DNA of 64,000 nt from assembly GCF_051105105.1 (NCBI RefSeq), contig NZ_CP185339.1; one strand, 5' to 3'. The position numbers and the translations under genes were made by a program. Under the pieces are notes generated by a model, which made no database searches, was not told the origin of the DNA, and was given only the letters and a program-made list of their open reading frames with translations. This document shows, in pieces, positions 14,013 through 59,514 of the stretch. How positions within the stretch are numbered: the first letter of the stretch is position 1; every line of letters starts with the position of its first letter. The DNA comes from Nannocystis pusilla. Lineage in GTDB: Bacteria; Myxococcota_A; Polyangia; Nannocystales; Nannocystaceae.

Positions 14013-17000
14013 GTGAACCTCACCAGGGACGAGCAGCGCACGTCGCTCACCAAGCGGCTCACCGTCGCGATCGCCACGCCGATCGCGCTCCTGTTGCTGC
14101 TCGGCGTCGTCCTCGGCCGGCAGATCCTCCTGATGGCGGACGACGCCGCCTGGGTCAACCACAGCAACGAGGTCATCTCGCAGGCCAACGCGACGATGCT
14201 CGAGATCGTCGATCAGGAGACCGCGCTGCGCGGCTATCTGCTGTCCGGCGATCGCCAGTACCTGGGGCCCTTCGAGCGGGCGCACCCGGACGGCAAGTTC
14301 GAGCGCCTGCACGAGCTCGTCGCCGACAGCCCCTCGCAGCAGGCTCAGTTCGATCAGGCCCACCAGCACTACCGCGAGTGGTACGCCACCTGCGAGGCCG
14401 CGCTGAGCGGTCACGACCTCGACCAGGCGCGCAGCCCCGCCGCCATGCTCGCGCGCAAGGCCCGGATGGACGCCATCCGCGAGGCCATGGCCGTGGCCAC
14501 CGACATCGAGAAGGACCTGCTGCGCGCCCGCGCCGTCGCCTCGGAGCGCTCCACCGCGATCGCGCGGACCGCCTTCGTCGCGCTGCTCGCCGGCGTCGCC
14601 CTCCTGCTCGCGTTCCTCTCTCGCCGCCAGCTCGCCTCGATCGCCAGCATCTTCGGCACCGCCCTCGACGCCGAGCAGCAGGCCCGCGCCGCGCTCGAGG
14701 CCGAGGCGTGGATCCGCGAGGGTCACACGCGCGTCGCCGAGGTCGTGCAGGGCGAGAAGAGCACCGTGCAGGTCGGCCACGACTGCCTGGCCGCGCTCGC
14801 CGCCCACGCCGGCGCCGACGTCGGCGCCTTCTTCGTGCGTGACGGCGGCGACTGGGTGCGCCGCGTCGGCCTCGCGCTCGACTCGCGGGTCGCCGGGCCG
14901 GAGACGTTCGCCGCCGGCGAGGGCGTCGTCGGCCGCGCCGCTGCCGGCGGCCAGGTCGTCGAGCTGCGCGACGCCGACGAGCTGCCCCTGCGCACCGGCA
15001 CCAGCGAGCGCTTCCCCGCCCACGTGCTCGTCCTGCCCGCGCGCGTCGACGGCGTCACCATCGCCGTGCTCGAGCTCGGCTTCCTCCGCCCGGCCGAGCC
15101 GCGCGTGCGCGCCTTGCTCGAGCGGATCGGCGAGACCGTCGCGCTCGCGGTCCGCAGCTCGGAGCAGAAGGAGCGGCTCGCCGCCCTGCTCGAGGAGACC
15201 CAGCGTCAGGCCGAGGAGCTGCAGACCCAGCAAGAAGAGCTGCGGGTCCAGAACGAGGAGCTCGAGCAGCAGACCCGCGCGCTCGAGGAGTCGCGGGCGC
15301 GCCTCGGCAATCAGCAGGCCGAGCTCGAGCAGATCAACGCCCACCTCGAGGAGCAGACGCAGGCGCTGCAGGCCGAGCGCGACACCCTCACGCAGGCGCA
15401 GATCCAGCTCAAGAGGACCTCGGCCTTCAAGTCCGAGTTCCTCGCCAACATGTCGCACGAGCTGCGCACCCCGCTCAACAGCTCGCTGATCCTCGCGCGC
15501 CTGCTGGCCGACAACCGCCAGGGCAACCTCGACGCCGAGCAGGTCAAGTTCGCCGAGACCATTTACTCGGCCGGCAACGACCTCCTCACCCTCATCAACG
15601 ACATCCTCGACCTGTCGAAGATCGAGGCCGGCATGCTCGAACGTCCGGCCCGAGACCATCTCGCTGGCGCGGGTCACCGACCAGATGATGTCGACCTTCC
15701 GCCCGGTCGCCCGCGACCGGCGGCTCGCCCTCGACCTCAACGTCCAGCGCAACGTCCCGGGCGCGCTGCAGACCGATCCGACGCGGCTGTCGCAGATCCT
15801 GCGCAATCTATTGTCGAACGCGCTCAAGTTCACCGAGAAGGGCGGCGTCAAGCTCACGGTGCGCGCCGCCGGGGCCGGTGTGGTCGCCTTCAACGTCACC
15901 GACACCGGCATCGGCATCCCGCCCGATCAGCAGGAGCTGATCTTCGAGGCGTTCCGCCAGGCCGACGGCACGACCAACCGCAAGTACGGCGGCACCGGCC
16001 TCGGTCTCTCGATCTCACGCGACCTGGCGCGCCTGCTCGGCGGCGAGCTCACCGTCGCCAGCGTCGTCGGCCGCGGCAGCACCTTCACCCTCACGATCCC
16101 CGCGCAGCTCGTCGCGCACGGTTCGGCCCCGGCGCCGACCCTCGCGCCTTTGCCACCTCCGGCGCCGATCCCTCCCTTGCGTCGCCTCCCCGCGCCGCCG
16201 CCCCCGCCCCAGCCGCCGACCGCCGCGCGCTCGATCCTCCTCGTCGAGGACGACCCCACGTTCGCCGGCATCCTCGCCGGCCTCGCCCGCGAGCTCGACT
16301 TCCACCCCCTCCTCGCCGACACCGCCGAGGAGGGCCTGGCGCTCGCGCGTCAGCAGCGGCCGAGCGCCATCGTCCTCGAACGTCTCCCTCCCCGATCGCT
16401 CCGGCCTCAGCGTCCTCGACGCGCTCAAGCACGACCCCGCGACCCGGCACATCCCGGTCCACGTCATCTCCGCCAGCGACCACACGCGCACCGCGCTCGA
16501 GATGGGCGCGGTCGCCTACGCGATAAAGCCCGTCGTCCGCGATCAGCTGGTCGCGGCCCTGCGGCGGCTCGAGTCGAAGGCCACGCAGTCGCTGCGGCGC
16601 GTCCTCGTCGTCGAGGACAACGTCGTCCACCGCGAGAGCACCTGCAAGCTGCTCGCGGCCGACGACGTCGAGACCGTGCCGGTCGGCACCGCCGCCGACG
16701 CGCTCCGCGCGTTGCGCACCACGACCTTCGACTGCATGGTCCTCGACCTCAGCCTGCCCGACAGGTCCGGCTTCGAGCTGCTGCGGGAGATGGCCCAGGG
16801 CGAGCAGTACGGCTTCCCGCCCGTCATCGTCTACACCGGCCGGGCGATCAGCCGCGCCGAGGAGCAGGAGCTCGGGCGCTTCTCGCAGTCCATCATCATC
16901 AAGGGCGCCCGCTCGCCGGAGCGGCTGCTCGACGAGGTCACCCTGTTCCTCCACCAGGTCGAGACCAGCCTCCCGCCCGAGCGGCAGCGCATGCTGCGGG

Positions 17001-29320: not shown

Positions 29321-30430
29321 CCTGGCACGTTCACGGCAGCTACCTCTACTACCTCACCCAGGCGCCGCACGAGTTCTACCTGCCCGTAAAGCCAGGTCGA
29401 CCCGAGGGCTACGGCGGGCGCAGCGGCAGCTTCGCCTGGGGCGCCAACGTCCACGAGGTCCCGGTGGAGGCCCTCGCGCAGCAGCAGTTCGACGTCGTCC
29501 TGTTCCAGTCGCGCCGCAACTACGAGTGCGACCAATTCGAGGTCCTCGGCGCCGCCCAGCGCCGGCTGCCGCGCGTCTACCTCGAGCACGATCCGCCGCG
29601 CGAGTCGCCGACCGACACCCGCCACCCGGTCGACGACCCCGACGTCTCTGCTCGTCCACGTCACCCCGTTCAACGCCCTGATGTGGGACGCCGGGCGCAC
29701 CCCCGTGCGGGTCGTCGAGCACGGCGTCGTCGTCCCCGACGACGCCGCCTACAGCGGCGAGCTCGCGCGCGGCATCGTCGTCGTCAACGACCTCGCGCGG
29801 CGCGGGCGTCGGCTCGGCCGCGACGTGTTCGACCGCGTGCGCGCCCACGTCCCGCTCGACCTCGCCGGCATGGACTCGGCCGCGCTCGGCGGCCTCGGCG
29901 ACCTGCCGCTGCGCGAGCTCCACGCCCGGCTCGGCCGCTACCGCTTCTTCTTCAACCCGATCCGCTACACCAGCCTCGGCCTGGCGGTGTGCGAGGCGAT
30001 GATGATCGGCCTGCCGATCCTCGGCCTCGCCACCACCGAGATGAGCACCGCCGTGCAGAGCGGCGTCAACGGCTACGTCGAGACCGACCTCGACCGCCTG
30101 CTCGCGCACATGCGGCGCCTGCTCGCCGACCCCGCCGAGGCCGCCGAGCTGGCCGCCGGCGCGCGCCGGATCGCCCGCCAGCGGTTCGGCATCGGCCGCT
30201 TCGCCGCCGATTGGTCGCGGGTCCTGGGCGAGGTCACCGGATGTCCCGAGGGACAGCTCGTCGCGCCGATACCGGGATGTCCCGAGGGACAGCTCGTCGC
30301 GCCCGCCGCCGGATGTCCCGAGGGACAGCTCGTCGCGCCCGCCACCGGATGCCCCGAGGACCAGCTCGTCCCGCCGATCACCACCTGTCCCGCGGGACAG
30401 GCCCCCGAGCCGGCCCGGAGGACCGCGTGA
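29299..30430 (+). CDS. glycosyltransferase family 4 with C-terminal GCPEGQLVAPxx 12-aa tandem repeats; +1 frameshift near 29655
   Basis: GTG start (VRRLRVLTWHVHGSYLYY). GT4 C-terminal domain FFNPIRYTSLGLAVCEAMMIGLPILGLATTEMSTAVQSGVNGYV in ORF 29681..30430. The two ORFs join at gacgtcTctg. Confidence 0.65.
30239..30410 (+). repeat. 36-bp in-frame tandem repeat (x4.5) encoding GCPEGQLVAPxx
   Basis: ggatgtcccgagggacagctcgtcgcgcc repeated with 36-bp period inside the 3' end of the GT4 gene. Confidence 0.8.
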
Positions 30431-36425: not shown

Positions 36426-36696
36426 CGCATCGCCCAGGCCCCCGACCGCTCCGAATCGCCCTCCACAATCTCATGAGCACGCCCCCCGCTGTCGCTTGCG
36501 ACCTCGCAATGTCATGAGTCCACCCGCTCACATCGCCGCCCCGAGCCACCGAGCCCGCCGCTCCCCAAGCCACGAGTCAGCTCGCTCTCCGCGGCTCAAC
36601 ACGGTGCCCTGCGTTCGCCCGAGCGACCATCTCCCCCTGCTCACCGCTCCCCGTCACCCATCCCGCGCAATGCCATGACCTGCCCGACGTGAGCCC

Positions 36697-37885
36697 ATGC
36701 CTCCACGCAACGACCTGCTCCCCGACGTCGCCCCGCTCGCCCTCGATCCCCGGCCGCGGCTCGGCCGCGACTACTCGCGGGTCGCCGCGCCGGGCCCCGC
36801 CGCGTCTCTCGATCGCGCGCGTCCCCTCGACTGGTCGCGCGTGCGGCGGATCCTCGTCGTCCGGCTCGACAACCTCGGCGACGTCATCCTCACCGGCCCG
36901 GCCCTGCGCGCGCTCAAGGCTCATCTCCCGCACCTCCACCTCACCCTGCTCGCCAGCCCCGGCGGCGCCGCGGCGGCCGCCCTGCTGCCGTGGGTCGACG
37001 ACGTTCGAGCCCTGCCGCGCCCTGTGGCAGGACCTGGGCCGCCTCGCCTTCGATCCTGCGCGCGAGCGCGAGCTCATCGCCACCCTGCGGCGCGGCGAGT
37101 ACGACCTCGCCCTCATCCTCACCAGCTTCAGCCAGACCCCGCACCCGGCCGCCCTCGCCTGCGCCCTGGCCGGCATCCCGATGCGGGTCGGCGAGTCGCG
37201 CGAGCGCGGGCGGGCCCTCACCCTCGCCCTGCCGCACGCCGACGACGGTCTCCACCAGTGCGAGCGCAACCTCCAGCTCGTCGAGCGCCTCGGCGTGCCG
37301 GTCGTCGATCGCCGGCTCGAGATCCGGCTCCCGCGACCGGCCTGGAGCGCCGCCCAGGCCCGCCTGGCCGCCCACGGCGTCGCCGGCGACTACCTCGTGT
37401 GGAACCCCTTCGCCAGCTGCGCCGCGCGCACCTACGACCCCCTGCGCCACGCCCTCGCCGCCCGCGCCCTGGCCGAGTACGCCGACCTGCGCCTCGTCGT
37501 CTGCGGCGCCGCCCGCGACCGCGAGCGCGCCCGCGAGCTCCTCCCGCTGCTCGGCCCGCGCGGCCTCGACCTGGTCGGAGAGACAGATCTACCCGAGTTC
37601 GCCGCCCTCCTCGCCGGCGCCCGCCTCGTCCTCACCAACAACACCGCCGCCCTCCACCTCGCCGACGCCCTCGCGGTGCCCCAGCTCGTCACCTACGCCG
37701 GCACCGACCGCGACAGCCAGTGGAGGCCCCGCACCTCGCCCCACCGCCTGCTGCGCCGCCCCACCGCCTGCACTCCTTGCTATCGCTTCGCCTGCCCGAC
37801 CGGCCACGAGTGCCTCGCCCTGGCCCCCGCCGAGGTCCTCGCCGCCGGCCTCTCGCTGCTCGCCGAGACCGCCGTGCGCACCTGA
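36697..37885 (+). CDS. GT9 heptosyltransferase-family glycosyltransferase; +1 frameshift at about 37003
   Basis: ILVVRLDNLGDVILTGPALRALKAHLP in ORF 36697. Remainder (YLVWNPFASCAARTYDP, LTNNTAALHLADALAVPQLVTY) in ORF 36689..37885. The two join when the extra T in gacgTtcgag (reverse complement ctcgaACGTC) is removed. Confidence 0.7.
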
Positions 37886-41681: not shown

Positions 41682-43517
41682 TCAGGCCAGCTCGCAGGCC
41701 ATGTGCGGGCGCTCGTCGGGCAGCGCGAACAGCGGCCGCTCGCGCGGGTGCTGCGACGGCGACAGCTCGTGCACGGCGCCGTCCTCGACGAACAGCACCC
41801 GGTCGAACAGCGACAGCAAGCTCCAGCGGTGGCACGCGGCCAGCACCGTCGCCTCGGGCGACGACTGGAAGATCGCGGCCAGCACCTCGCGCTCGGTCGG
41901 CGGATCGAGGGCCGCGGTCGGCTCGTCGAGCAGCAGCAAGTCCCGCGAATGCGCCCGCAGCAGCCCGCGGGCCAGCGCGATCCGCTGGCGCTCGCCGCCG
42001 GACAGGTTGAGGCCGCTCTGGGCCAGGTGCGTGTCCCAGCCCGCCGACAGCTTGGCGATCACCGGCCCCAGACGCGCCAGGCGGATCACCTGCGCCAGCA
42101 CCTCCTCCGGCACGGCTTCGCCGAGCGTCACGTTGTAGCGCAGCGTCTCCGAGAAGATCTGCGGCTCCTGCGGGATCAGCAGCGTGCGCTGGGCCAGCGC
42201 CTCGAACGAGCTGCGGCGGCCGTCGAACGCCACCTCGCCGGCCTCCGGGCGCAGCATCCCCGCCAGCAGCTTGAGCAGCGTCGACTTGCCGCCGCCGCTC
42301 GTGCCGACCACCGCGATCTTCTCGCCGCGGCGGATCGTCAGCGACCCGCAGCGGAGGGCCCGCTCGTCGCCCGCGTAGCTGAACGCCAGCGCGTCGAGCT
42401 GGAGCTCGCGCCAGCGCGGCGCGGCCGTCGACGCCGGGATCGCCGTCGGCGACCCGCGCAGCAGCTCGCTGGCGTCTTCGTAGGCCGTGCAGGCCTCGAC
42501 GATGTTGCCGTAGTAGGCCGAGAAGGAGCTGATCGCCCCGAAGATCTTGTCGAGGTAGGCGATGAGCACGTAGACCTGCGCCACGTCGAGCGCGGTGCCC
42601 TTCAGCCCGGCGCCGTGGAAGTACCATAGCAGCGACGTTGCCATCACCAGCGCGTAGCCGCAGCTCACCGCCCCCCACTTGAGCTCGCTGAAGCGCGACA
42701 CCCGGCGCACCAGCTCGCCGCCCTCGGCCCGCTGGCGCCCGAGGTCGGCGCAGGCCAGCGCCTCGAGGTTCAGCGTCTTCACCGTGACGACGTTCGTCAG
42801 GTAATCGACGCACACCCGGCCGACCTTGTTGTCGAATTGATTGACCAGGCGGATGTTGTCGACCATGCGGCGGTTGAAGTACAGCATCGCCGCGATCGTG
42901 ACCCCGCCCATGACCACCACGTTGGCGGCCACGCGCACGTCGAGGGCCCACAGCGCCACGCTGGCGAGCACCACCTTGACGCTGCCCTCCAGCACCTGCC
43001 ACGAATACTGGCCGACCACGTTGCCGACCGCGAGCGCCGAGCGGTTGAGCTTGGCCAGGTTCTCGCCGGTGTGGCGCTCGACGTGCCAGTGCAGCCCGTA
43101 GCCGAGCAGCGCCTGGAACACCCCCGTCATCGTCGTCATACGCGCCTGGTAGGCCACCCCGCTCTGCAGGTAGCGCCCCAGGTGGTGCAGCAGGATGCTG
43201 GCGAAGCGCAGCCCGAGGTAGGCGCCGATGCCGAGCAGCGCCCCCTCGTAGGCGACCTGCGAGAAGCCGTGCTCGACGAACACCCCGACCGTGTAGCCGA
43301 TGGCCCAGGGGACCAGCAGCTCGGCCGTGTTGGCGGCGATGAACAGGGCGACGAACGCCCAGAACCGCGACCGGCTGGGAGCCAGGGCCACCCAGGCGGC
43401 CCGCAGCAGCGGCGCCAGCCCGCGCACGGGCGGCAGCGGCCGCGCCGGCCCGGCCTGTTCGCGGGCGCCGACGCCCGCCCAGGACAACGGCGAGAGGAAA
43501 CGAGCGAGTGCGTGCAT
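41682..43517 (-). CDS. ABC transporter fused permease/ATP-binding protein (type I exporter, MsbA/peptide-exporter-like)
   Basis: Six TM segments N-terminally. Walker A GTSGGGKST. Signature LSGGERQRIALARGL. Walker B LLLLDEPTAALD. Confidence 0.85.
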   Translation of the reverse strand: MHALARFLSPLSWAGVGAREQAGPARPLPPVRGLAPLLRAAWVALAPSRSRFWAFVALFIAANTAELLVPWAIGYTVGVFVEHGFSQVAYEGALLGIGAYLGLRFASILLHHLGRYLQSGVAYQARMTTMTGVFQALLGYGLHWHVERHTGENLAKLNRSALAVGNVVGQYSWQVLEGSVKVVLASVALWALDVRVAANVVVMGGVTIAAMLYFNRRMVDNIRLVNQFDNKVGRVCVDYLTNVVTVKTLNLEALACADLGRQRAEGGELVRRVSRFSELKWGAVSCGYALVMATSLLWYFHGAGLKGTALDVAQVYVLIAYLDKIFGAISSFSAYYGNIVEACTAYEDASELLRGSPTAIPASTAAPRWRELQLDALAFSYAGDERALRCGSLTIRRGEKIAVVGTSGGGKSTLLKLLAGMLRPEAGEVAFDGRRSSFEALAQRTLLIPQEPQIFSETLRYNVTLGEAVPEEVLAQVIRLARLGPVIAKLSAGWDTHLAQSGLNLSGGERQRIALARGLLRAHSRDLLLLDEPTAALDPPTEREVLAAIFQSSPEATVLAACHRWSLLSLFDRVLFVEDGAVHELSPSQHPRERPLFALPDERPHMACELA

Positions 43518-44254
43518 GATCACCAATCGGCGCCGGAGGACCGGGTCGAAGGGGCGCTCAGCCCCGCAGCTCCACGAGGTTCGCAACGAACGATCGTGCG
43601 CGGATAAAAGAGGTTCTCGGGCAGGGACGGCGCGTCGGCGTGATCATGAGGAATGAACGTCGGTGCGAAGGCATCGAAATGCGTAGAGTCCAGGGAAGGC
43701 GAGGACGTCCTCCGACGATCGCTCGCAGCAGCAGAGGCGGCTCACTATAACAGACGGCCGTCCGCCGCCGCCACCCATGAATCGCAGCGGCGGCGGCTCC
43801 GCCGGCGGAGCGAGCGCCGCGCCGCCCCGCGCCTATGATCATAGCGCTCTCGCCGATCGCCCTGCGTCCGCGAATGAGAGACCCTCTCACGGATCGCGAC
43901 AATCGGTCGCAGCCTCGCCGCACCGAGCATGCACCAGCGCCAATCGCCGCGATCTCACGCCGTGCTGGCGCGCGGGCCCCAGACGGCCCTCTCTGCCGGC
44001 ATTTGCCCCCGCTTCGCTGTTGCGGCCCGCCGGCGCGTGTTCTCCTCGGCAGAGTCCGCTGACTCACCGGTCCCGGCGCCGGGGAAGCCCCCGAATCGCG
44101 CCTCGCCCGGCCCTGCGAACCCTACCGGCGTTCCCCCCAGCGCGGGGGTATTTGCCAGGTTGACCCCTGTCCCCGCCGCGATTTAGCCCGGTACGATGCC
44201 CCCCGCGACGAGCAAACCCGGCAGCGCTCCCGCGACGAGACCATCGTCTGCAAT

Positions 44255-44788
44255 TTGACGTATCAAGCCCGGCGCTTCCTGGTGCTCCGCGGCGACCTCG
44301 CGTCGACGGGCGACGATCGAGCGCTGCAGCCGCGCTCGGAGATCGAGGCGAGGTTCGAATCACTGTGGCAGACGGCGCTCGAGCCGGCGCTGCGAGACGG
44401 TCACGAGCTTACGTTCGCCGAGGTCGAGGCGCGGCTGGGACCGCATCCGCTGCTCAAGTCGAAGCGCCGCTACCGCGAATGCGACTGGCTCGGCGCGGTG
44501 TTCATCGCGCGGCTCAGCCCGGACGGAGCCTCCTGCGAGCACCTGTGGCCGGTCTCGCCGCGGCCCGATCCGCGCCGGCTCGAGATCCACTTCCCCGACG
44601 CCGCCGCCCTGGCCCGCTTCCGCGCCGCCGCCCACCGCGCCCGACGCGAGCCCGACGAGCTGGCCGCCTGTCTCCTCGACGGCTTCGCTGCCGACGCCCC
44701 CGCCGGTCAAGTCGCCGACGACGCCGCCCAGGACCCTTCCTCGGGCCCGGAAGCCGCCGACCACGCCCCGCGCCGCCTCCCCTCGTGA
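44255..44788 (+). CDS. hypothetical protein
   Basis: 177-aa ORF with strong GC3 bias. No recognisable domain. Confidence 0.4.
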   Translation: MTYQARRFLVLRGDLASTGDDRALQPRSEIEARFESLWQTALEPALRDGHELTFAEVEARLGPHPLLKSKRRYRECDWLGAVFIARLSPDGASCEHLWPVSPRPDPRRLEIHFPDAAALARFRAAAHRARREPDELAACLLDGFAADAPAGQVADDAAQDPSSGPEAADHAPRRLPS

Positions 44789-45219
44789 CCGCCCGGAACG
44801 CTCGCCCCGACCGCTCGCGGCGCCACGACGATTCGGAGCCACGCGCGCCGACCTCGCCCTCGCGGTGATTCGCGGCGACGACCTCACGATCGGCCTCGGA
44901 GCGCGTCGCCGCGGATGACTCGCGCTACGAGCCGAGCGTGACGACACGGGTGACTCGGCGGCCGAGCCGACGCGCCTGCGATTGCTCGCGGCGACTCGCC
45001 AAAGCCATTCAACGCACCGGGAGCGCACCGGACTCCTCGGTCCGCGTCCCCAGCGTGCTGATGCGACGAACCCGGCCGCCGCTCCCAAAATCACCGCTCG
45101 GCCAGGCGACGATGCTTTGCGCCCGCCTGACTCCCCGCTCGCGGCAATGCCATGATTCCCCCGCGCTTCGACGCTGCGGATGACGCCGCGAATATCGCCT
45201 CGCGGCCGCCCGCGCGACC

Positions 45220-45810
45220 AGCCCGTGCCGCCATGCCGACGAGACCCCACTCCTTCGCGGCCGTCCGCCCCGCCCGACCGGCCCGTGCCGCAGGCCGCCC
45301 TGATGCCGACGACACCGCGATCCCTCAATTCGCGGCCGCCCGCCCGCCCGACCGGCCCATGCCGCAATGCGAACAGGCGGCCTGATTCCGACGAAGCCCC
45401 AATTCCCTCCATTTGCGGCCGTCCCCCCGCCCGACCCGTGCCGCAATGCGAACAGGCGGCCTTGATGCCGAGCGAACAGGCAGCCCTGACGCCGACGGCG
45501 CGCCGATTCCTCAATCTGCGGCCGGCCACCCGCCCGACGGAGCCGCAATGCGAACAGGCGGCCCTGATGCCGAGCGAACAGGTAGCCCTGATGCCGACGA
45601 CGCGCCGATTCCTCAATCTGCGGCCGGCCACCCGCCCGACCGGAGCCGCCATGCGAACACGCCGCCCTGATACCGACGACGCCGCAATTCGTCAATTCGC
45701 TGCTCCACGGATTGGCGCCCGTCCGCCCCGCCCGCACAACCCTGGCCGCAATGCGAACAACCGCCTTGACGAGACGGCGCCGCGATTCGCGGCCGGCCGC
45801 CCGCGCGGCC
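45220..45810. repeat. tandem repeat array 1 (~100-110 bp units, 24-bp sub-repeats gcgaacagg(c/t)rgccctgatgccga), core CGCAATGCGA
   Basis: About 5 imperfect units, each containing cgccgattcctcaatctgcggccggccacccgcccgac and gccgcaatgcgaacaggcggccctgatgccgagcgaacagg. Confidence 0.8.
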
Positions 45811-45884
45811 GGCCGTACCGCAGGCGGTCCCGGCACCGCACGAGGAGAAGCCGGAGCTCGCGCGATGGAGGTCCGCCGAGACTG

Positions 45885-46289
45885 TCAGCGCTGGCGGTGC
45901 CCGCCGCCCTGTCCGCCGCCCTGCCCGCCGCCGCGCTGTTGCGACTGCGACGAGCGGCGCTCACGCTCCTCGTCCGTCCCGCGGCCTCCCTCCTCGCCGC
46001 GGCCCTCGCCGGAGCGGCGGCCGCCGTGCGACGCGTGGCCGCCTTTGGCGCCGATCTCCGCCATGTGCTCGCGATCCTGGCTGACCGCCTCGCCGCCCTT
46101 GCGTCCGGCCTCGCGCGCCTCCTCGGACGTGAACTCGTGCGCGGTGCCCTTCTCGTGGGCGGCGTGGCCGCCCTTGCTGGCGATCTCGCGTTGTTTGTCC
46201 TCGTCCATTCCGGCGAAGCCGCGCCCACCGCCGCGCTGGCCCTTGTTCTCGCCCTTGTTCTCGTTGCGGTTGTCGTCCCTGGTAGGCAT
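45885..46289 (-). CDS. KGG-repeat general stress protein (YciG/con-10-like)
   Basis: IASKGGHAAHEKG, AGRKGGEAV, IGAKGGHASHGG: KGG repeats, Gly/Glu/Arg-rich tail. Confidence 0.7.
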   Translation of the reverse strand: MPTRDDNRNENKGENKGQRGGGRGFAGMDEDKQREIASKGGHAAHEKGTAHEFTSEEAREAGRKGGEAVSQDREHMAEIGAKGGHASHGGRRSGEGRGEEGGRGTDEERERRSSQSQQRGGGQGGGQGGGHRQR

Positions 46290-46582
46290 GACGTCCTCGT
46301 ATTCCCTGGCGCGGGCGCGCCGGCCTCCGGACATCGGAGACCCGCCGCGACCGCATTGCGGGGTGGAGTATGGCGCGCTACCGCCCCGGGACAAGCTCGA
46401 CTATGACGATTTGCCGACCGCGGCGAATCATAGTACTCCCCAGTTCGCCCCATTTGCCCAGGCCGAGGGCGGTGGACCGCAGGCGGGGGCTCCGGCGGGG
46501 GCTGGCGACCGAGGGAAAATCCGAGGGTTGCCGAGCGTGCGGACCCGACCATACCTGGGACATGAGAGCCGGTCTCGAAGGT

Positions 46583-47728
46583 ATGTTGAACGAAATGGAT
46601 CGGCCTCCGCCGGCGCAGACGAGCGCCGCGGGCCATCCGGTCCTGTGGGTCTCGCAGCTCGCCTGGGACGCCATACCCCGGCGCCTACGGCACCTCCTGG
46701 CCCGCGGCGCGCGGCAACGGCGCGTCGTCTTCGTCGAGGCCGTGGTGCCGACCGCCGGCCCGCCGCGGATGGACTTCGATCACCGCGAGGGCCTCGTGGT
46801 CGCCACTCCCTTCGTGCCGCGCGGCTTGACCGGCGACGAGGCGACCGCCCTGCTGCGCGGCCTGCTCGACGGCGTCGTCCGCGACCTCGGCCTCGGGGGC
46901 TTCGTCCTGTGCCACGATTCGCCGCGGGCCCTGGCCGCCTGCCGCCTCAAGCCGATCGCCACCATCTATTACGATTGTCCGGGCGGGCCGCGGTCGCCGC
47001 TCGAGGGCGACGAGGCCCTGCGGGAAGAGGCCCTGCGCCGCGCCGACGCCGTGTTCGTCGACGCCGGCCACGACCCGCTCGGTCCGGAGTTCGGCCCGGC
47101 CACCCACCTCCTGCCGAGCGGGGTCGACGTGGCCCACTTCGTCAGCGCCCGCGCCGGCAGCCCCGACCCGGCCGATCAGCGCGACATCCCCCACCCCCGC
47201 CTCGGCTTCTACGGCGCCATCGACCGCGACGTCGACGTCGACCTCCTCGTCGCCGTCGCCGACCTGCGGACCGACTTCCACATCGTCCTCATCGACCACG
47301 AGGGCGGCCCCGACCGGCCCCGCCTGCCCGCCCGGCCCAACATCCACGAGCTCGGGCCCAAGTCGTACGCCGAGCTGCCGGCCTACCTCGCCGGCTGGGA
47401 CGTCGCCCTCCTCCCCTTCGACCACGAGGCCGCCGTTCGCCGCGCCAAGCCCTCCCAGACCCTCGAGTATTTGGCCGCCGGCAAGCCGGTGGTGGCCACC
47501 CCGCTGCGCAACGTCATCAACCCGTACGCCATCCAGGGCATGGTCTCGATCGCCGAGGGCGCCGAGGACTTCGTGATCGCCGTCCAGTGCGAGCTCCACC
47601 GCGCCGACCGGCGCCGCTGGCTGCAGCGCGTCGACACCTGCCTGCGCGGCAGCTCGTGGGACGACACCTGGGGCGTCATGGAGGCCGTGCTGACGCGCCT
47701 CGTCGCCCCGCCCGTCGCTACCCCCTGA
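46583..47728 (+). CDS. glycosyltransferase family 1/4-like protein
   Basis: C-terminal domain with KPSQTLEYLAAGKPVVATP (E-x7-E-like) and FYGAIDRDVDVDLL. Start uncertain (alternative ATG at 46562). Confidence 0.5.
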   Translation: MLNEMDRPPPAQTSAAGHPVLWVSQLAWDAIPRRLRHLLARGARQRRVVFVEAVVPTAGPPRMDFDHREGLVVATPFVPRGLTGDEATALLRGLLDGVVRDLGLGGFVLCHDSPRALAACRLKPIATIYYDCPGGPRSPLEGDEALREEALRRADAVFVDAGHDPLGPEFGPATHLLPSGVDVAHFVSARAGSPDPADQRDIPHPRLGFYGAIDRDVDVDLLVAVADLRTDFHIVLIDHEGGPDRPRLPARPNIHELGPKSYAELPAYLAGWDVALLPFDHEAAVRRAKPSQTLEYLAAGKPVVATPLRNVINPYAIQGMVSIAEGAEDFVIAVQCELHRADRRRWLQRVDTCLRGSSWDDTWGVMEAVLTRLVAPPVATP

Positions 47729-47829
47729 GCGGCGTCGCCTGCGCGCTCTCGGCCGTCCGAGGCTCCAGTTCGCCGCACGGCGAGCCGAACCTCGCGCGGC
47801 CCCCTCGTCCGCCAGGCGCGGCGCGTATC

Positions 47830-48530
47830 GCCTGCTCGCATTGTCCGGCCGCCTGCTCGCATTGCCGGCGGCCGACTCGCATTGCGCGGTCGCTCGTGAG
47901 CGGTGAAATCCCGACCGCCTGCTCGCATTGCCGGGCTGCCGCATGGCCTGGCCGCTTGCTCACGTTGCGCAGGCCCTCGCCCGCGAGGCGCGGCCCGGCC
48001 GCTTGCTCACGTTGCGCAGGCCCTCGCCCGCGAGGCGCGGCCTGGCCGCCCGCATTGCGCAATCGCTCGTCCGTGATGCGAGCTTGGCCGCCCGCATTGC
48101 GCAATCGCTCATCAGCGATGCGAGCCTGGCCGCTCGCTCGCATTGCGCAGTCCCTCGCCCGCGGCCCCCGCTCGCATTGCGCAGTCCCTCGCCCGCGATG
48201 CGAGCCGGCCCCCTCGCATTGCGCAGTCGCTCGTCCGCGATGCGAGCCCGGCCGCCCCCTCGCATCGCGCAGTCCCTCGCCCGCGATGCGAGCCCGGCCG
48301 CCCCCTCGCATTGCGCAGACGCTCGCCCGCGATGCGAGCTCGGCCACCCCCTCGCATTGCGCAGTCGCTCGTCCGCGATGCGGCCTGGCCGCCCGCTCGC
48401 ATCGCGCAGTCCCTCGCCCGCGATGCGAGCCCGGCCGCCCCCTCGCATCGCGCAGTCCCTCGCCCGCGATGCGAGCTCGGCCGCCCCCTCGCATCGCCTG
48501 GCCGCCCGCTCGACGCCCGCCCAATCGCCG
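47830..48530. repeat. tandem repeat array 2 (~47-bp units x ~14) with internal imperfect hairpin CTCGCATTGCG...CGCGATGCGAG; inverted relative to array 1
   Basis: Unit ctcgcattgcgcagtccctcgcccgcgatgcgagcccggccgccccc. Both the hairpin-forming part and the spacer-like part are conserved. Confidence 0.85.
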
Positions 48531-48808
48531 AGCCCGCCCGTCGCCGGCCCGAAAGTCATTCAACGTAGCAGCCGCCGGGTCGGGGGCCAGCGCGGCGCGC
48601 TCGTCCGATCGGGGGTGGCTCGCGCCGCGGCGTCTCGGGCGTGCCGAGCCCGACGTTGCGTTCGTGCGCCACCTACGCCGAGGCATTCGCGGCCAGCGAG
48701 GCCATGCACGCGGCCCGTGGCTCGCGCGCCGCGGCTCCGATCGAGTCGCACGAATGGTGGCCCGCGCGGGCGATTCGATCAAAGACCTGCGCGACCGGAG
48801 AATTCATC

Positions 48809-49345
48809 ATGAACGAGAACAAGCGCAATCAAGAGCCCCTGAGCAACCTCGCCTACGATTGGGTCACCATCGTCCAGCACAAATCGGAGGCCCTCCGCGC
48901 CTACGAGCAGTACATTCAGGACGCGCAGCAGGCGAACTCGCCCGAGTGCGTCGAGCTCATGCAGCAGATCTACGAGCAGGACGCCCGGCACATCGAGCAG
49001 GCCACCCGCCACCTCATGGAGGTCCTGCGCAGCGGCCGGATGGGCCAGACTCAGGGCGAGAGCCAGACCGGCCAGGGCGAGGGCGGCCGCATGGGCCAGA
49101 CGAGCGGCCAGGGCGGTCGCGCAGGCACGAGCCAGGGCGAGAGGGGCGGCGCAGGCACCAGCCAGGCGGCCAGCCAGGGCCGCATGGGCGGCATGAACCA
49201 GGGCGAGGGCGGCCAGGGCCGCATGGGCCAGACGAGCGGCCAGGGCGGCATGGCCGGCGGCAGCGGCATGACGCAGGGCGAGAACCCCCGCGAGTCGATG
49301 CAGGGCGAGTCGACCGAGCGACGCGGCCAGCGGAACCCTCGCTAG
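48809..49345 (+). CDS. hypothetical protein with N-terminal helical domain and Gly/Gln/Met-rich repetitive tail (stress-protein-like)
   Basis: MNENKRNQEPLSNLAYDWVTIVQHKSEALRAYEQYIQDAQQ...; tail repeats GRMGQTSGQGG. Confidence 0.45.
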   Translation: MNENKRNQEPLSNLAYDWVTIVQHKSEALRAYEQYIQDAQQANSPECVELMQQIYEQDARHIEQATRHLMEVLRSGRMGQTQGESQTGQGEGGRMGQTSGQGGRAGTSQGERGGAGTSQAASQGRMGGMNQGEGGQGRMGQTSGQGGMAGGSGMTQGENPRESMQGESTERRGQRNPR

Positions 49346-49531
49346 GATTCGTGCCAGCGGACTGGACCGCTGCATGCAATCGTCCCGCGAGCGCATCACG
49401 CGCTCGCGGTCGACGGCAGACACGACATTGACTGACGAAAGTGTAAACCGGATCACAAATCCGGCGCCTCATTCGCATTGTTCACGATTTGGCTTGCCCA
49501 GGGCCCGCGAGGATGAACTATAAGCGTCACC

Positions 49532-50638: not shown

Positions 50639-55258
<4,620 letters not shown>

Positions 55259-55415
55259 CCGTCACGACGGCATCCGCGTCGAGCTGCACATCCCGCTCGC
55301 CGACGGCGGACCGTCACGACGGCATCCGCGTCGCGCTGCACATCCCGCGCGCCGAGAGCGGACCGTCACGACGGCACGCGGCGAGCTGCACATCGCCCTC
55401 GCCGAGGGCGGCTCG

Positions 55416-56057
55416 TCAGTCGCGCTTGCGCAGCGGCGCCAGCCCGTGCTCGAGCGCGTAGCGGGTCATCGCCGCCCGCGAGCGCAGCCCGAGCTGCTGG
55501 GAGATCCGCGCCTTGTGGAACTCGACCGTCTTGAGCGCGATGCCGAGGTCGCCGGCGATCTCCTTGCCCGCCATGCCGGAGGCGACGCGGACCAGGATCT
55601 CGCGCTGACGCGTGGTGAGCAGGTTGCCCCCGCGCCGCCGCGGCGCCGTCTCGCTCGTCCCCTTGAGCAGCGCCTCGATCGGCGGGCTGACGTGGCTGCC
55701 GCCGGCGGCGACCGTGCGCACCCCGGCGACCAGCTCCTCGGGCGACGCGTCCTTGAGCACGTACCCGCGGGCCCCCGCGGCCAGGGCCGAGTGGGCCCAC
55801 TGCGGATCGGCGTGGCGAGTGACGACGACCGCGCGGGTCGCCGAGCTCGTCTGCAGCGCGCGCAGCAGATCGAGCCCGCCCAGCGTCGGCAGCTCGAGCT
55901 CGAGCGCCACCACGTCGGGCTGCAGCTCACGCGCGGCCGCCAGCGCCTTCGCGCCGTCGGTGAACGCCCCGACGACCTCGAACTCGACGCCGAGCAGGAC
56001 GCTCAGGCACTCGAGCACCATCGCCTGGTCGTCGACGAGGATCACCCGCGGTCGCAT
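55416..56057 (-). CDS. NarL/FixJ-family response regulator (REC + LuxR HTH)
   Basis: Start at internal Met (MRPRVILVDDQ). REC motifs (VVALELELPTLGG, RGYVLKD). C-terminal LTTRQREILVRVASGMAGKEIAGDLGIALKTVEFHKARI. Confidence 0.8.
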   Translation of the reverse strand: MRPRVILVDDQAMVLECLSVLLGVEFEVVGAFTDGAKALAAARELQPDVVALELELPTLGGLDLLRALQTSSATRAVVVTRHADPQWAHSALAAGARGYVLKDASPEELVAGVRTVAAGGSHVSPPIEALLKGTSETAPRRRGGNLLTTRQREILVRVASGMAGKEIAGDLGIALKTVEFHKARISQQLGLRSRAAMTRYALEHGLAPLRKRD

Positions 56058-56133
56058 GCAAGCTTCGGTGAACACCGTACCCGATCGACCATGAAGTTCA
56101 AGCACGTGTCCGCTCCTCTCGTGACATGGACCC

Positions 56134-56819
56134 TCAGCGACCCGGAAGCAACCCGTGTTCGACCGCGTAGCGGGTCAGCTCGGCGACGGTGCGGAGGCCC
56201 AGCACTCGCATGAGTCGCGCCTTGTGAAACTCGACCGTCTTGCGCGAGATGCCGAGGATGTCGCCGATCTCGCGGGCCGGCCGGCCCTCTGCGACCAGCT
56301 GCAGCACCTCGCGCTGGCGCGACGACAGCTCGCCCCCGGCCAGCCCCTCTTCGAGCGCGCCGGGTCGCGGCTCGTAGACCAGCCCCGGCGACACGTACGT
56401 GCCGCCGGCCAGCACCTTGCGGATCGCCACCAGCAGCTCCGACGAGGCGGCCGTCTTCACCACGTAGCCGTGCGCCCCGGCGCGGAACGCCTCCTGCACG
56501 TAATCAGGCTCGGCGTGGACCGTGACGAAGATGATCCGCCCCCGCGGACACGCGCGCTGCAGCTGGCGCACCGCGTCGAAGCCGTTGAGCAGCGGCATCG
56601 TCACGTCGACGAGCACCACGTCGGGTTGACATTGTTCGGCCGCGGCGACGAGCGCGCGGCCGTCGGCCACCGCCCCCACGATCTCGAGCTCGGCCGCCAA
56701 CAAGCGCACCAGGCCCTCACGGACCAGCGTGTGGTCGTCGGCCAAAAGCACCCGCGGGCGCGCCCGCGAGGGGGATGCGTCCGCGCCAACGTCCGCGTGA
56801 CTGGCTGCGTCCTCGTTCA
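56134..56819 (-). CDS. NarL/FixJ-family response regulator (REC + LuxR HTH)
   Basis: VLLADDHTLVREG...VVLVDVTMPLLNG...HGYVVK. LSSRQREVLQLVAEGRPAREIGDILGISRKTVEFHKARL. GTG start inferred; the upstream 1.5 kb of ORF 56134..58404 is repeat DNA, not coding. Confidence 0.7.
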
Positions 56820-57949
56820 CCCCAGCTCCGAAAGCGTCGCCGTCCCCGACGCTAACAAACACCTCGAAGACGTTCAGCCCGGAAAAACCCCTGACCCCGA
56901 GCTCGCCTCGTGGACGGGCTCGGTCGTGCGGCTCGCCCGCCCCGCAGGCGAGGCGCGCACTACAGTTCGGTGACGACGCATCGTCGACATCAGGCTCGGC
57001 GTCGACCGCCACCGAGCGCCCGCGCAGCCCGCATGCACCGCTCTCGTGATCGCGGGCGGACGACGCACCGACTGGGGCCTCGCCGGACTCCCGCTCATCC
57101 TCGAACCCGTCGACGATGCGGAGAGCCCCGCCGCGGGCGCCAGGGGTGAGCACAAACGTTTTTTCGCCGCCGACGCCGCTCGCGCCCGGCGGTCTCGGCC
57201 CATCGATCGAGGAGGCGCCCAATTCGCCTGACTCACAGGCGACCGCGCCGCCCCCGGAATTCTCCGGGGAGACCGTCCTGCGCGGACTCGACACGATGGG
57301 CCGCGGCCCGTGAGCCGAATGGACATTCGCCACGCCGGCCCGCTCGCGGGCCTTGCGCCGATTTTCCCGGCTCGTGTCCGGTCCCTGCAGCCTGTGGGGC
57401 CGTATTGCGGTAGCGATTTCGCGCATCGTCGACCGGCCAACCTTGGTCGAGCCGGCCGGGGCGGCAACCGCTCCGCGCCGTACGAAAGAGGGAATACGCG
57501 GCGCTCTTCGTCGGCGGAGATTAGAGTTGGAGCATGGATCACAGCCTCGCATTCCCGGGGTTCTTCCCAGATGTGGCGCGATTCGCGGCGGCGAGGCGAG
57601 CGCACCGACGCCCGCGGCTCGAGCGTGCCGCGGAGCGATTGCTCCGAGTCCGCGGCCGGCCTGTATCTCTGAAATCACCGCCGCCTTGCACCCCGGGCGC
57701 CCTCTCCCAAGATTGCGCCGCAGTCGTCGGCCTCGCGAGCTCACGGGATTATGCGCACCCGCTGCGGAGCGAGCAGGCGCAGGCCGACGACTGCAAGCGG
57801 CGGAATTCGCCGCGACTGCCGACGTCATCGCCTCGTCTCGCTCCTCGGCCGCCGAACGACCGGCCATCCTCGACCTGCTCGAAAGACCAGGTAAGAGCGC
57901 GCCGCTCCTGGCCCGCGGCCCTGAAGACGCCGACCTTCGGTTCCTGTCG

Positions 57950-58330
57950 CGAAGAGCCCCGCTCTCCTCCGCCCGCCGGGCAACATCACTGTCCGCGGAG
58001 AGCTCCGCCCTTCGCCCGTCAGGAAACATCACAGTCCGCGAAGGACCCCGCCCTCCCTCCTGCGCCGCACTCCTCCGCCCGCCAGGAAACATCACGGTCC
58101 GCAAAAAGCCCCGCCCTCCCTCCTGCGCCGCACTCCTCACGCCCGTCGGGAAACATCGCTGTCCGTGAAGAGCCCCGCCCTCCTCCTCCGCCCGCCGGGA
58201 AACATCCCTGTCCGCCGAGAGCCCCACGCTCTCTGCTTCGCCCGCCGGGAAACATCCCTGTCCGCGCAGGACCCCGCCTCCCTCCTTCGCCGCTCTCCTC
58301 CGCCCGCCGGGCCGAAGCCAGCCTCGTCGC
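57950..58330. repeat. tandem repeat array 3 (~57-bp units x ~6), core CCGCCCGCCGGGAAACATCCCTGTCCGC
   Basis: Units separated by gagccccgccctccctcctgcgccgcactcct. Contains short palindrome GGGAaacaTCCC. Confidence 0.8.
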
Positions 58331-58629
58331 GCCCCCTCGCCCCGGCGCCGGCGCCCGCCCGGAAAAACCCCCGCCCTCGGCTCCCACCCCCCGTCGCGGC
58401 GCACCCATCAGAGCTCTCTTTCACGAGCTGCCCCAAAGCACAGGCGCTCGCCCTCGCGGCGCCGCTCGACCGCACCTCGCGCATCGCCGAGGGCCGCGAC
58501 CGACCGGCAACTCTCGCCGTCGTTCGCACCAGCGTCTCGCAGCAGTCTCGCGGCCGGCGAACAACGATTCGTCACACCCGCGACTTGCGACCTCGCGCGC
58601 ACCCGAACACGCTGGTCTTCAGCGCCGTC

Positions 58630-59514
58630 ATGACCCCCGCCCGCTCCTCGGCTCTCTCTCCGCGCGCGCTGGCCCCGGCGGGACGGGACCGGCCCCTCGA
58701 CGCGCTGCCCGTCTCGCGCCACCCGTCCACCGGCGCCGCCGTCCGCTGCTTCGAGCTGCGCGCCGAGCTGTGGCGCGCGCTGCTCGGTCAGCCCGCCGCG
58801 CTCGCCTCGATCGTCGAGCTCGCGCACCGGGCCCTGCACCCCGAGCTGCGCCCCGAAGGCCCCCTGCGGCGCCTCGAAGCCGCCGCCCAGGTCCTCGGCT
58901 GCGGCGACGACCTCGGCGCGCGCCTGGCCTACGACGCGGCGCGCCGGGCCGCCTCCGACGCGCTGGGGCCCGCCAATCCCGACCGCTGCCTGGTCCGCCG
59001 CCTCGTCGGCGACATCCTGGCCCGTCGCTCGGTCCCCCTCGCCGAGCCCGCCCTCGGCCGCTGGTGCGACATCTTGGAGCGGCGCCAGGCGGCGCTGGAC
59101 GCCGCCCTGAACCTCCTGCGCGCCCGCGACGAGCAGATCGGCCGCATCGTCCGCGCCTTGCGGCCGCCCGGGGGCGGCTGCGCCGAGTTGGTCGTGGTCG
59201 CCAGCCAGGGGCTGCAGTGGGCCGTGGGGCGCTACGATCCCCGCCGCGGCGTCCGCTTCGACCGGTTCGCCGAGTGGTGGATCCGGCGCATGCTCCGTCG
59301 TCACCTCGCGCCGCCGCCGGCGCCCGGACCTCGCCCGCGGGCCGAGCTGCGCAGCACCTGCGCGCAATTCACCACCCTCCACGGACGGGCCCCGACCGAG
59401 GAGGAACTGATGGCATTGACAGGCGAACCACTGGAGCAGGTCCGCCTTGCCCGGTCGCTCGACTCGCACCATCGCTACGCCCGCGAGAGAGACATCGACC
59501 CCGCGCCCCCATGA
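58630..59514 (+). CDS. sigma-70-family-like protein retaining region 2.3/2.4 and 3 motifs but lacking region 4 (truncated or pseudogene)
   Basis: YDPRRGVRFDRFAEWWIRRMLRRHL resembles the sigma region 2.3-2.4 core (FD..RG.KFSTYA.WWIR). GRAPTEEELMALTGEPLEQVRLAR resembles region 3.0. The ORF stops before any region-4 HTH. Confidence 0.4.
   Translation: MTPARSSALSPRALAPAGRDRPLDALPVSRHPSTGAAVRCFELRAELWRALLGQPAALASIVELAHRALHPELRPEGPLRRLEAAAQVLGCGDDLGARLAYDAARRAASDALGPANPDRCLVRRLVGDILARRSVPLAEPALGRWCDILERRQAALDAALNLLRARDEQIGRIVRALRPPGGGCAELVVVASQGLQWAVGRYDPRRGVRFDRFAEWWIRRMLRRHLAPPPAPGPRPRAELRSTCAQFTTLHGRAPTEEELMALTGEPLEQVRLARSLDSHHRYARERDIDPAPP

Follow-up and report, generated by a model that had tools for sequence, protein, structure and literature searches.

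Tandem-repeat arrays with a shared core beside a KGG/glycosyltransferase gene pair of Nannocystis pusilla: probable lineage-specific minisatellites

Why should two tandem-repeat arrays that share a core motif in opposite chromosomal orientation lie on either side of a stress gene and a glycosyltransferase gene? The question is raised by a 64-kb stretch of Nannocystis pusilla DNA (contig NZ_CP185339.1; ~72% G+C), referred to here as the window, in which a gene for a KGG-repeat stress protein and a gene for a GT1/4-type glycosyltransferase are enclosed in this way. An original prediction for this locus had suggested that the inverted arrangement might allow the enclosed cassette to be inverted or excised, and had likened the arrays to repetitive extragenic palindromic (REP) sequences or miniature inverted-repeat transposable elements (MITEs), to recombination substrates or to arrays of binding sites. 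We consider it probable that both arrays are instead intergenic minisatellites of the variable-number tandem-repeat (VNTR) type, specific to the N. pusilla clade and derived from a shared seed. We favor this local origin because different units have been amplified in different strains, because the arrays are absent from sister species and because they are confined to a single locus.

Two arrays and one core at the 3' ends of divergent genes

The locus is laid out as follows.

45141-45815, minus strand: array 1, directly 3' of the KGG gene and on the sense strand of that gene
45885-46292, minus strand: KGG-repeat stress-protein gene, 135 aa (Pfam PF10685 KGG, E 2.7e-15)
46595-47728, plus strand: GT1/4-type glycosyltransferase gene, 377 aa (Pfam PF13692, E 4.8e-06)
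47829-48551, plus strand: array 2, adjoining the 3' end of the glycosyltransferase gene

The Pfam matches confirm the two genes that the arrays had been said to bracket. The glycosyltransferase was translated as 46565-47728 for the Pfam search, and its start was moved to 46595 after a match to P0126 (N. pusilla XWX07346.1), to which it is identical over 377 aa; the N. exedens ortholog of the KGG gene carries an annotation to the same family.

Both arrays are real and far beyond chance, as detected by Tandem Repeats Finder and by word counts. Ten copies of the 10-mer CGCAATGCGA are present in the 64-kb window, where 0.29 would be expected, and every one lies inside the arrays, four on the plus strand in array 1 and six on the minus strand in array 2. 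Likewise, all 19 matches to the 18-mer at up to three mismatches (0.52 expected in the window) fall in the arrays, and their polarity is strict: minus in array 1 and plus in array 2. The core common to both arrays had thus been recognized correctly as inverted, and it proves longer than was first claimed. It comprises 17-19 bases, GGCCGCCTG(C/T)TCGCATTGC, also written as CCGCCTGYTYGCATYGC. Within the 19-nt shared segment, GCAATGCGAACAGGCGGCC and GGCCGCCTGCTCGCATTGC are complementary at 18/19 nt (95%), with exact runs of 9 nt. Pooling of 83 copies from all arrays yielded a conserved block of 17 nt, CCGCCTG(C/T)T(C/T)GCAT(T/C)GC, in which the information content is 1.0-2.0 bits per position and outside which the flanks are not conserved. 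The block contains a small palindrome, GCA-T-TGC, that is broken in the common CATCGC variant. A broader homology between the two arrays was considered and rejected, since they align cleanly over a motif of 19-24 nt only and the remainder is low-complexity G+C similarity.

The KGG gene (minus) and the glycosyltransferase gene (plus) are transcribed divergently, each array lies immediately 3' of its gene, and the core reads 5' to 3' as given above on the sense strand of each adjoining gene. Therefore, the inverted chromosomal layout follows from the positions of the arrays at the 3' ends of divergent genes. Read in this manner, the layout needs no mobile or invertible unit with inverted repeats at its termini.

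Array 1 had been described as a series of uniform ~105-bp units. Sequence reading together with repeat families instead resolved eight tandem units of 61-103 bp each, starting near 45141, 45226, 45287, 45361, 45440, 45542, 45645 and 45745. The copy at 45141 that had been regarded as solitary, a 12-mer GCAATGCCATGA with its exact start at 45144, is the outermost degenerate unit of this array, and the outer three units carry deletions within the core, by which part of it has been lost. Tandem Repeats Finder reported a period of 102 at 45369-45676 (3.0 copies, 87% matches, score 460) and a period of 83 at 45250-45476; the units that start near 45440 and 45542 share 96% identity. Diverged copies of the core lie at 45648-45665 and 45748-45765, in addition to the first of the two features below.

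45364-45382, minus strand: shared core copy GGCCGCCTGTTCGCATTGC, with identical copies at 45443-45461 and 45545-45563
45791-45814, minus strand: G+C-rich perfect palindrome GGCCGGCCGCCCGCGCGGCCGGCC, ~70 nt 3' of the KGG stop codon

This palindrome is paired in both the minimum-free-energy and the centroid folds; it has no U tract and was not picked up by the terminator scan. It might nevertheless be a candidate for a transcript-end hairpin.

Array 2 does contain hairpin units close to the predicted ~47 bp, about 12 of them and 42-47 nt long, but it is a composite array in which short units of ~20 nt occur as well. Its units stand in the following order.

47829-47949, plus strand: proximal part of four units, namely three short units of 20-35 nt with core CCGCCTGCTCGCATTGC and one 46-nt 'long' unit (47869-47914)
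47950-48043, plus strand: variant pair, two 47-nt units with a diverged core CTCACGTTGCGCAGGCCCTCGCCCGCGAGGCGC
48044-48499, plus strand: expanded part, with two 42-nt units, one truncated 35-nt unit, seven 43-46-nt units and a terminal 21-nt short unit
48500-48565, plus strand: degenerate tail, then the motif AAAGTCATTCAACG at 48552-48565

Tandem Repeats Finder recovered the same divisions, with a period of 20 at 47829-47885 (2.8 copies), a period of 47 at 47945-48049 (96% matches) and a period of 46 at 47965-48497 (7-12 copies, 80-88% matches, scores 499-571); for the 46-nt units it gave 88-92% matches. The proximal layout of short/short/long/short is common to all loci of the N. pusilla clade. 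The 46-nt unit is a short unit joined to an imperfect inverted copy of the short unit's own core.

Both arrays are non-coding. Codon-position G+C shows no coding periodicity in either, unit lengths of 46, 79, 100 and 103 are not multiples of three, and a translation of array 2 returned zero matches against a protein database. That search was directed at spurious reading frames across comparable arrays in other genomes, for which it is weak negative evidence. G-quadruplexes were considered as a driver of instability and rejected, each array having just 2-3 relaxed motifs, on the minus strand.

The locus in other Nannocystis strains and species

Orthologous loci were obtained through the glycosyltransferase; there are ten of them, representing at least six species or strains. 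All ten have their genes in one and the same order and orientation: ATP-binding cassette (ABC) transporter, KGG gene (minus), glycosyltransferase gene (plus), a gene of no known family (plus) and CheB (plus). The intergenic regions are another matter. In the four loci whose glycosyltransferase is 94-95.5% identical to that of the window at the nucleotide level (L172, L171, L008 and L049), the spacer that separates the glycosyltransferase gene from the gene after it, on the array 2 side, measures 1184, 605, 807 and 408 bp, respectively, against 1078 bp in the window. The spacers and their contents are listed below.

Window (N. pusilla): 1078 bp, four proximal units followed by ~12 long hairpin units
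L172 (N. pusilla): 1184 bp, 21-nt unit x 22.7
L171 (N. pusilla): 605 bp, 21-nt unit x 12
L176 (N. pusilla): 918 bp, units of the L171 type in a different arrangement
RBIL2 and ILAH1: 807 bp, 64-nt mixed unit x 4.3
L049 (metagenome): 408 bp, four short units only
N. exedens: 368 bp, motif absent
N. punicea: 405 bp, motif absent
N. bainbridge: 740 bp, unrelated 51-nt unit x 6.3

The 21-nt unit that predominates in L171, L172 and L176 has no hairpin, and many core copies in the long arrays, for example that of L172, are visibly decayed. There is variation on the array 1 side as well, where the window has eight units, L172 has an 80-nt unit x 4.4 with the core variant GCAATGCAAACAGGCGRCC, RBIL2, ILAH1, L171 and L176 retain one or two remnants and the other species have none. 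The strain comparison that had been proposed as a check on the cassette thus found a structurally variable locus, differing in copy number and unit type, and not a single inversion; the KGG and glycosyltransferase genes keep their order and orientation with or without arrays. In N. exedens, N. punicea and N. bainbridge the gene pair is present without the motif. Since N. exedens and N. punicea possess neither arrays nor motif, the gene pair predates the arrays.

The array of N. bainbridge occupies the same intergenic site (L046 7285-7611) and consists of a 51-nt unit x 6.3 within a 100-nt super-unit (95% matches). A relationship to the N. pusilla arrays was considered and rejected, as their alignment was no better than that of shuffled sequences. 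This suggests that the intergenic site 3' of the glycosyltransferase gene is prone to, or tolerant of, array formation.

A census of the exact 19-mer (Y at the variable base), with one genome for each of 185,579 species, returned 45 loci, of which 44 were single matches in unrelated organisms. One of these was inspected (L038) and lies within apparent coding sequence; the remainder are taken to be chance matches. The sole multi-copy locus, with three copies within 125 bp, belongs to Nannocystis sp. RBIL2 and is the ortholog of the window locus. Scans of the window and ~100 kb of orthologous loci gave a similar result. The 14-mer core at up to two mismatches was found almost exclusively in the two arrays, the exceptions being isolated matches at 14603, 28229 and 31752 of the window, and the 19-mer core at up to four mismatches was found in the arrays only; polarity was constant in all array matches. 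Metagenomes were scanned with the pattern GCTCGCATTGC-N(8-38)-GCTCGCATTGC, which is matched by any tandem repeat containing that 11-mer, and at least 120 unrelated repeats (coding EARIA-type, a low-G+C family and others) were discarded; among the matches listed, the 16-nt core CGCCTGYTCGCATTGC never occurred in tandem, and its one single copy is in L060 (46% G+C). Within the limits of these searches, the motif does not appear to be a dispersed family. The proposed likeness of the arrays to REP sequences or MITEs is not supported, the motif being confined to two adjacent arrays in the sequence scanned.

A second copy previously held to be a related solitary motif, reported at 36669, starts exactly at 36667. 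It lies in an intergenic region (36468-36680), upstream of a gene starting at 36697, that carries the short motifs CAATCTCATGAG (36468), GCAATGTCATGA (36506) and GCAATGCCATGA (36667), the last being an exact 12-mer match to 45144. The GCAATGYCATGA copies at 36667 (exact) and 36506 (one mismatch) were considered as solitary array units and rejected: likeness to array 1 ends at the 12-mer, and when the 36667 copy was aligned to array 1, 6/200 shuffles scored equally well.

Origin of the arrays and competing explanations

The features expected of minisatellites are present at this locus: head-to-tail units of ~10-100 bp (periods of 20, 46-47 and 83-102 in Tandem Repeats Finder), a copy number and unit type that vary among strains between conserved flanks, and a non-coding character. 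Head-to-tail arrays whose neighboring units are closely similar indicate recent duplication. A local origin is further favored because conserved structure is lacking and because unrelated local arrays occur in the same genome (described in the last section).

It is tempting to reconstruct how such arrays might have arisen. A seed of 17-19 nt, corresponding to the conserved block of the core, would have entered the 3' flank of each divergent gene in the same sense. On the glycosyltransferase side, a proto-array with the short/short/long/short layout would then have expanded independently in each strain, as the pattern among strains shows; on the KGG side, the pattern is likewise that of a unit of ~80-100 nt expanding strain by strain. 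Replication slippage or unequal recombination between units is the likely route of expansion, by which the window strain would have amplified the 46-nt hairpin unit and other strains the 21-nt unit. The arrays themselves most likely have no sequence-specific function, and any effect on the stability of mRNA 3' ends or on the distance to the control region of the downstream gene would be incidental.

Several points weigh against such an origin. The spacers of RBIL2 and ILAH1 are identical at 803/807 positions, so the arrays are not hypermutable on very short timescales. The 17-nt core has been kept across architectures of 21, 46 and 80-100 nt and across strains while the flanks of the units differ, which is how a functional motif would look, and its constant sense relative to both genes is no less compatible with an element of the 3' untranslated region (UTR) than with chance or common descent. 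Nor does the minisatellite reading give an account of how one seed reached both flanks. In addition, the 21-bp period that dominates in two strains is near two helical turns, as would be expected, by analogy, of phased protein-binding sites. Finally, the census that speaks for confinement is one of an exact 19-mer in one genome per species, the source genome not being included.

Could the arrays instead be functional RNA elements? They would then form the 3' UTRs of the KGG and glycosyltransferase mRNAs and co-regulate both genes, their cores or hairpins blocking 3' exonucleases, ending transcription, or binding or titrating an RNA-binding protein or small RNA. The same motif sense relative to each gene in every locus of the N. 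pusilla clade and the conservation of the 17-nt core across unit types are consistent with this, as is the folding of array 2. The sense strand folds well beyond shuffled sequences (z -6.35), and a stem formed by CTCGCATYGCG and CGCGATGCGAG, with 8-12 bp and a loop of 12-14 nt, occurs in nine units of the expanded part, reaching 11-12 bp in the seven 43-46-nt units; single units have fold energies of -13 to -23 kcal/mol. Furthermore, one-sided changes in the stem are mostly G.U-compatible on the plus strand, with wobble pairs at five positions (20 cells) against A.C in 2 cells at a sixth.

Yet the antisense strand of array 2 folds well also (z -4.73), and array 1 shows no structure in excess of shuffles on either strand (z -0.51 and +0.49). 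Over 16 long units from five loci, 89.8% of stem cells are paired, and these values equal those of shuffles. None of the 11 stem pairs has a compensatory double change, a test of low power because the units are paralogous copies. The construction of the 46-nt unit from a short unit and an inverted copy of its core explains the hairpin without selection for a hairpin. An Rfam scan of 43500-49500 at E <= 1 gave just one chance-level match (ASdes), and scans of 44700-48900 for sigma-70 promoters and intrinsic terminators found no relevant site. L171, L172 and L176 have mainly the hairpin-less 21-nt units, and N. exedens and N. punicea do without any array. On balance, we regard a role as RNA elements as unlikely.

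A broader proposal, which we hold to be quite unlikely, is that the core is a real cis-element of either kind, acting as RNA in both 3' UTRs or as 21-bp-phased DNA, and that the arrays are coupling platforms tunable by copy number. If this were true, the arrays would couple the expression of the KGG gene, the glycosyltransferase gene and perhaps the downstream gene, expansion within a strain would amount to heritable retuning, and the unrelated array of N. bainbridge would reflect selection for an array at this site, not a mutational accident.

Slimmer still is the prospect that the arrays are binding platforms at the DNA level, with phased iteron-, operator- or centromere-like sites that organize or regulate the neighborhood of the stress gene. 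Their near-helical 21-bp period in L171 and L172 and the small palindrome in the core would suit such a role, as would the ~12 direct ~46-bp repeats with inverted repeats of array 2, which recall sopC (PMC3177203), and the position of array 2 upstream of a gene whose leader is strongly conserved. The palindrome, however, is broken in the common CATCGC variant, many cores are decayed, unit architecture differs among strains and the sites are wholly absent in sister species. Array 1 is flanked on both sides by the ends of convergent genes, a setting in which one would not expect a promoter, and no partition, replication or obvious cognate DNA-binding gene has been called beside the arrays at any locus.

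That the inverted arrays are recombination substrates or REP/MITE-like mobile ends, inverting or excising the KGG/glycosyltransferase cassette, seems barely credible: inverted motif copies do bracket a 2-kb cassette, but this cassette has one orientation and position in ten loci, array-less species included, the inverted identity amounts to just 18/19 nt, the motif shows no dispersal, terminal inverted repeats accompanied by a target-site duplication were not observed, and the called genes of the loci include no recombinase or transposase linked to the arrays, the IS630-type genes of N. exedens being an independent insertion. We judge identities of this length, with exact runs of 9 nt, to be short by the minimal lengths that homologous recombination demands. 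Across the ten loci compared, the arrays give no sign of switching the cassette by inversion or excision.

If the arrays are minisatellites, which known repeats do they most resemble? The mycobacterial interspersed repetitive units (MIRUs) form a family with members at many sites around the chromosome. In Mycobacterium tuberculosis these are minisatellite/VNTR loci (PMC3635867), and the Nannocystis arrays share with them tandem units of tens of bp, a high-G+C genome, an intergenic position at gene ends and a strain-variable copy number and unit composition between conserved flanks. Unlike MIRUs, related Nannocystis units are known at two adjacent loci only, the unit type itself changes among strains (21, 46 or 64 nt) and the two arrays have just a core of 17-19 nt in common.

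REP sequences, which are associated with a REP-associated tyrosine transposase (RAYT), are scattered in tens to hundreds of copies that often form inverted pairs. As in the REP sequences, bacterial interspersed mosaic elements (BIMEs) and REP doublets (REPINs) of Enterobacteria and Pseudomonas, the units of array 2 are imperfect palindromes in a 3' intergenic region, and by this analogy a role for array 2 in stabilizing the upstream mRNA is conceivable. In contrast to those elements, the Nannocystis units are arranged head-to-tail at one locus, no RAYT-like gene is among the called genes, array 1 is not palindromic and the palindrome is confined to the long units of array 2. MITEs differ in two respects, since the arrays are tandem and the enclosed gene pair is ancestral, being present without the motif in other species.

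The sopC site of plasmid F consists of 12 direct 43-bp repeats, and SopB binds the 16-bp inverted repeat that each of them contains (PMC3177203). It is paralleled in the window strain by the ~12 direct ~46-bp repeats with an internal inverted repeat, and in other strains by the 21-bp phased unit. Unlike sopC, however, the site is chromosomal, with an ABC transporter, the KGG gene, the glycosyltransferase gene, a gene of no known family and CheB/CheR genes as neighbors, and its unit architecture is not conserved among strains. Lastly, the arrays resemble CRISPRs (clustered regularly interspaced short palindromic repeats) in having regularly spaced repeats, some of them palindromic. The earlier conclusion that they are not CRISPRs nevertheless holds: the segments between cores are themselves repeated, leaving no unique spacers, unit lengths are irregular and there is no cas gene among the neighbors.

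The arrays thus add a further case to a class of sequence already known, the bacterial minisatellite; no published account of tandem repeats in Nannocystis was found in the literature. They provide a clean case of minisatellite evolution, in which one proto-array has led to arrays of a 21-nt unit in some strains and of a 46-nt hairpin unit in another, and in which the corresponding site of a sister species has acquired an array of unrelated sequence. They may also be used as strain-typing (VNTR) markers for N. pusilla. Their importance would be greater only if the shared core were a functional RNA or DNA site, which the present evidence does not require.

Other repeats and conserved elements of the locus

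Annotators should be aware that open reading frames (ORFs) called across such arrays are spurious. In L171 (6290-7276), a deposited gene call of 328 aa crosses the 21-nt array in frame with the real gene (start 6740), and this call is likely to be an annotation artefact because the array is stop-poor and G+C-rich.

The gene downstream of array 2 is preceded by a conserved stretch of its own.

48806-49345, plus strand: downstream gene, 179 aa, with a Gly/Gln-rich repeat tail and a conserved ~170-nt leader; no match in Pfam or NCBIfam

The leader (48632-48805) is unusually conserved across Nannocystis species, as compared with its equivalents in L008, L171-L176, L046 and L048. Even N. punicea and N. 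bainbridge retain, in slightly altered form, blocks such as GTTCGTGCGCCGCCTACGCCG, CCAGCGAGGCCATGCAC, GGTGG and TCAAAG. A coding extension of the gene was considered and rejected, because frame-breaking indels in RBIL2 and N. exedens mark the leader as non-coding; a structured RNA was rejected in turn, given the unfavorable covariation term of RNAalifold (+1.99) and the scarcity of compensatory pairs. The leader may be a promoter/operator or a 5'-UTR element.

The motif AAAGYCATTCAACG occurs on the plus strand both to the left of array 1 (45001-45014) and directly to the right of array 2 (48552-48565), these being its 2 matches in the window against 0.07 expected. The copy at 48552-48565 is conserved in RBIL2 and L172 and in part, as CAACGTAGCAGC, in N. 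exedens and N. bainbridge.

On the other side of the locus, the region from the ABC transporter to the KGG gene is a plasticity zone (L171 2901-3600; L173 2529-3669). L171 (N. pusilla GCA_026626665.1) has an A+T-rich foreign insertion between the two genes, N. exedens has IS630-type genes (DDE_3, HTH_32) in the same interval, and a 177-aa ORF at 44255-44788 of the window has a truncated or decayed counterpart in RBIL2.

Scored tandem arrays are frequent in the window. At 55215-55418, the last ~40 nt of a histidine-kinase gene (ending in GHGTRVELHVPLADG and the stop codon), together with ~10 nt beyond, have been duplicated about four times with a 52-nt period (88% matches). The copies decay away from the histidine-kinase gene, and the array fills the gap to a convergent response-regulator gene (55416-56174, minus strand). 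Such a duplication indicates that this genome builds arrays from the 3' ends of genes. Another intergenic array, with unrelated units of 43-63 nt (containing GGAAACATCACTGTCCGCGAAGAGCCCCGCCCTCC), lies at 57944-58291 within a non-coding stretch of ~2 kb (56791-58741).

Two further repeats differ in kind. A 36-nt x 4.6 repeat with the palindrome TGTCCCGAGGGACA at 30235-30400 has a period divisible by three, and its translation would be GCPEGQLVAP; the repeat probably encodes part of a C-terminus and is not an intergenic array. At 52686-52903, an ordinary coding repeat of 21/42 nt (EELQTANEELQSTNEEL-type coiled coil) lies in a CheB/CheR-PAS sensor gene and is conserved in L171.

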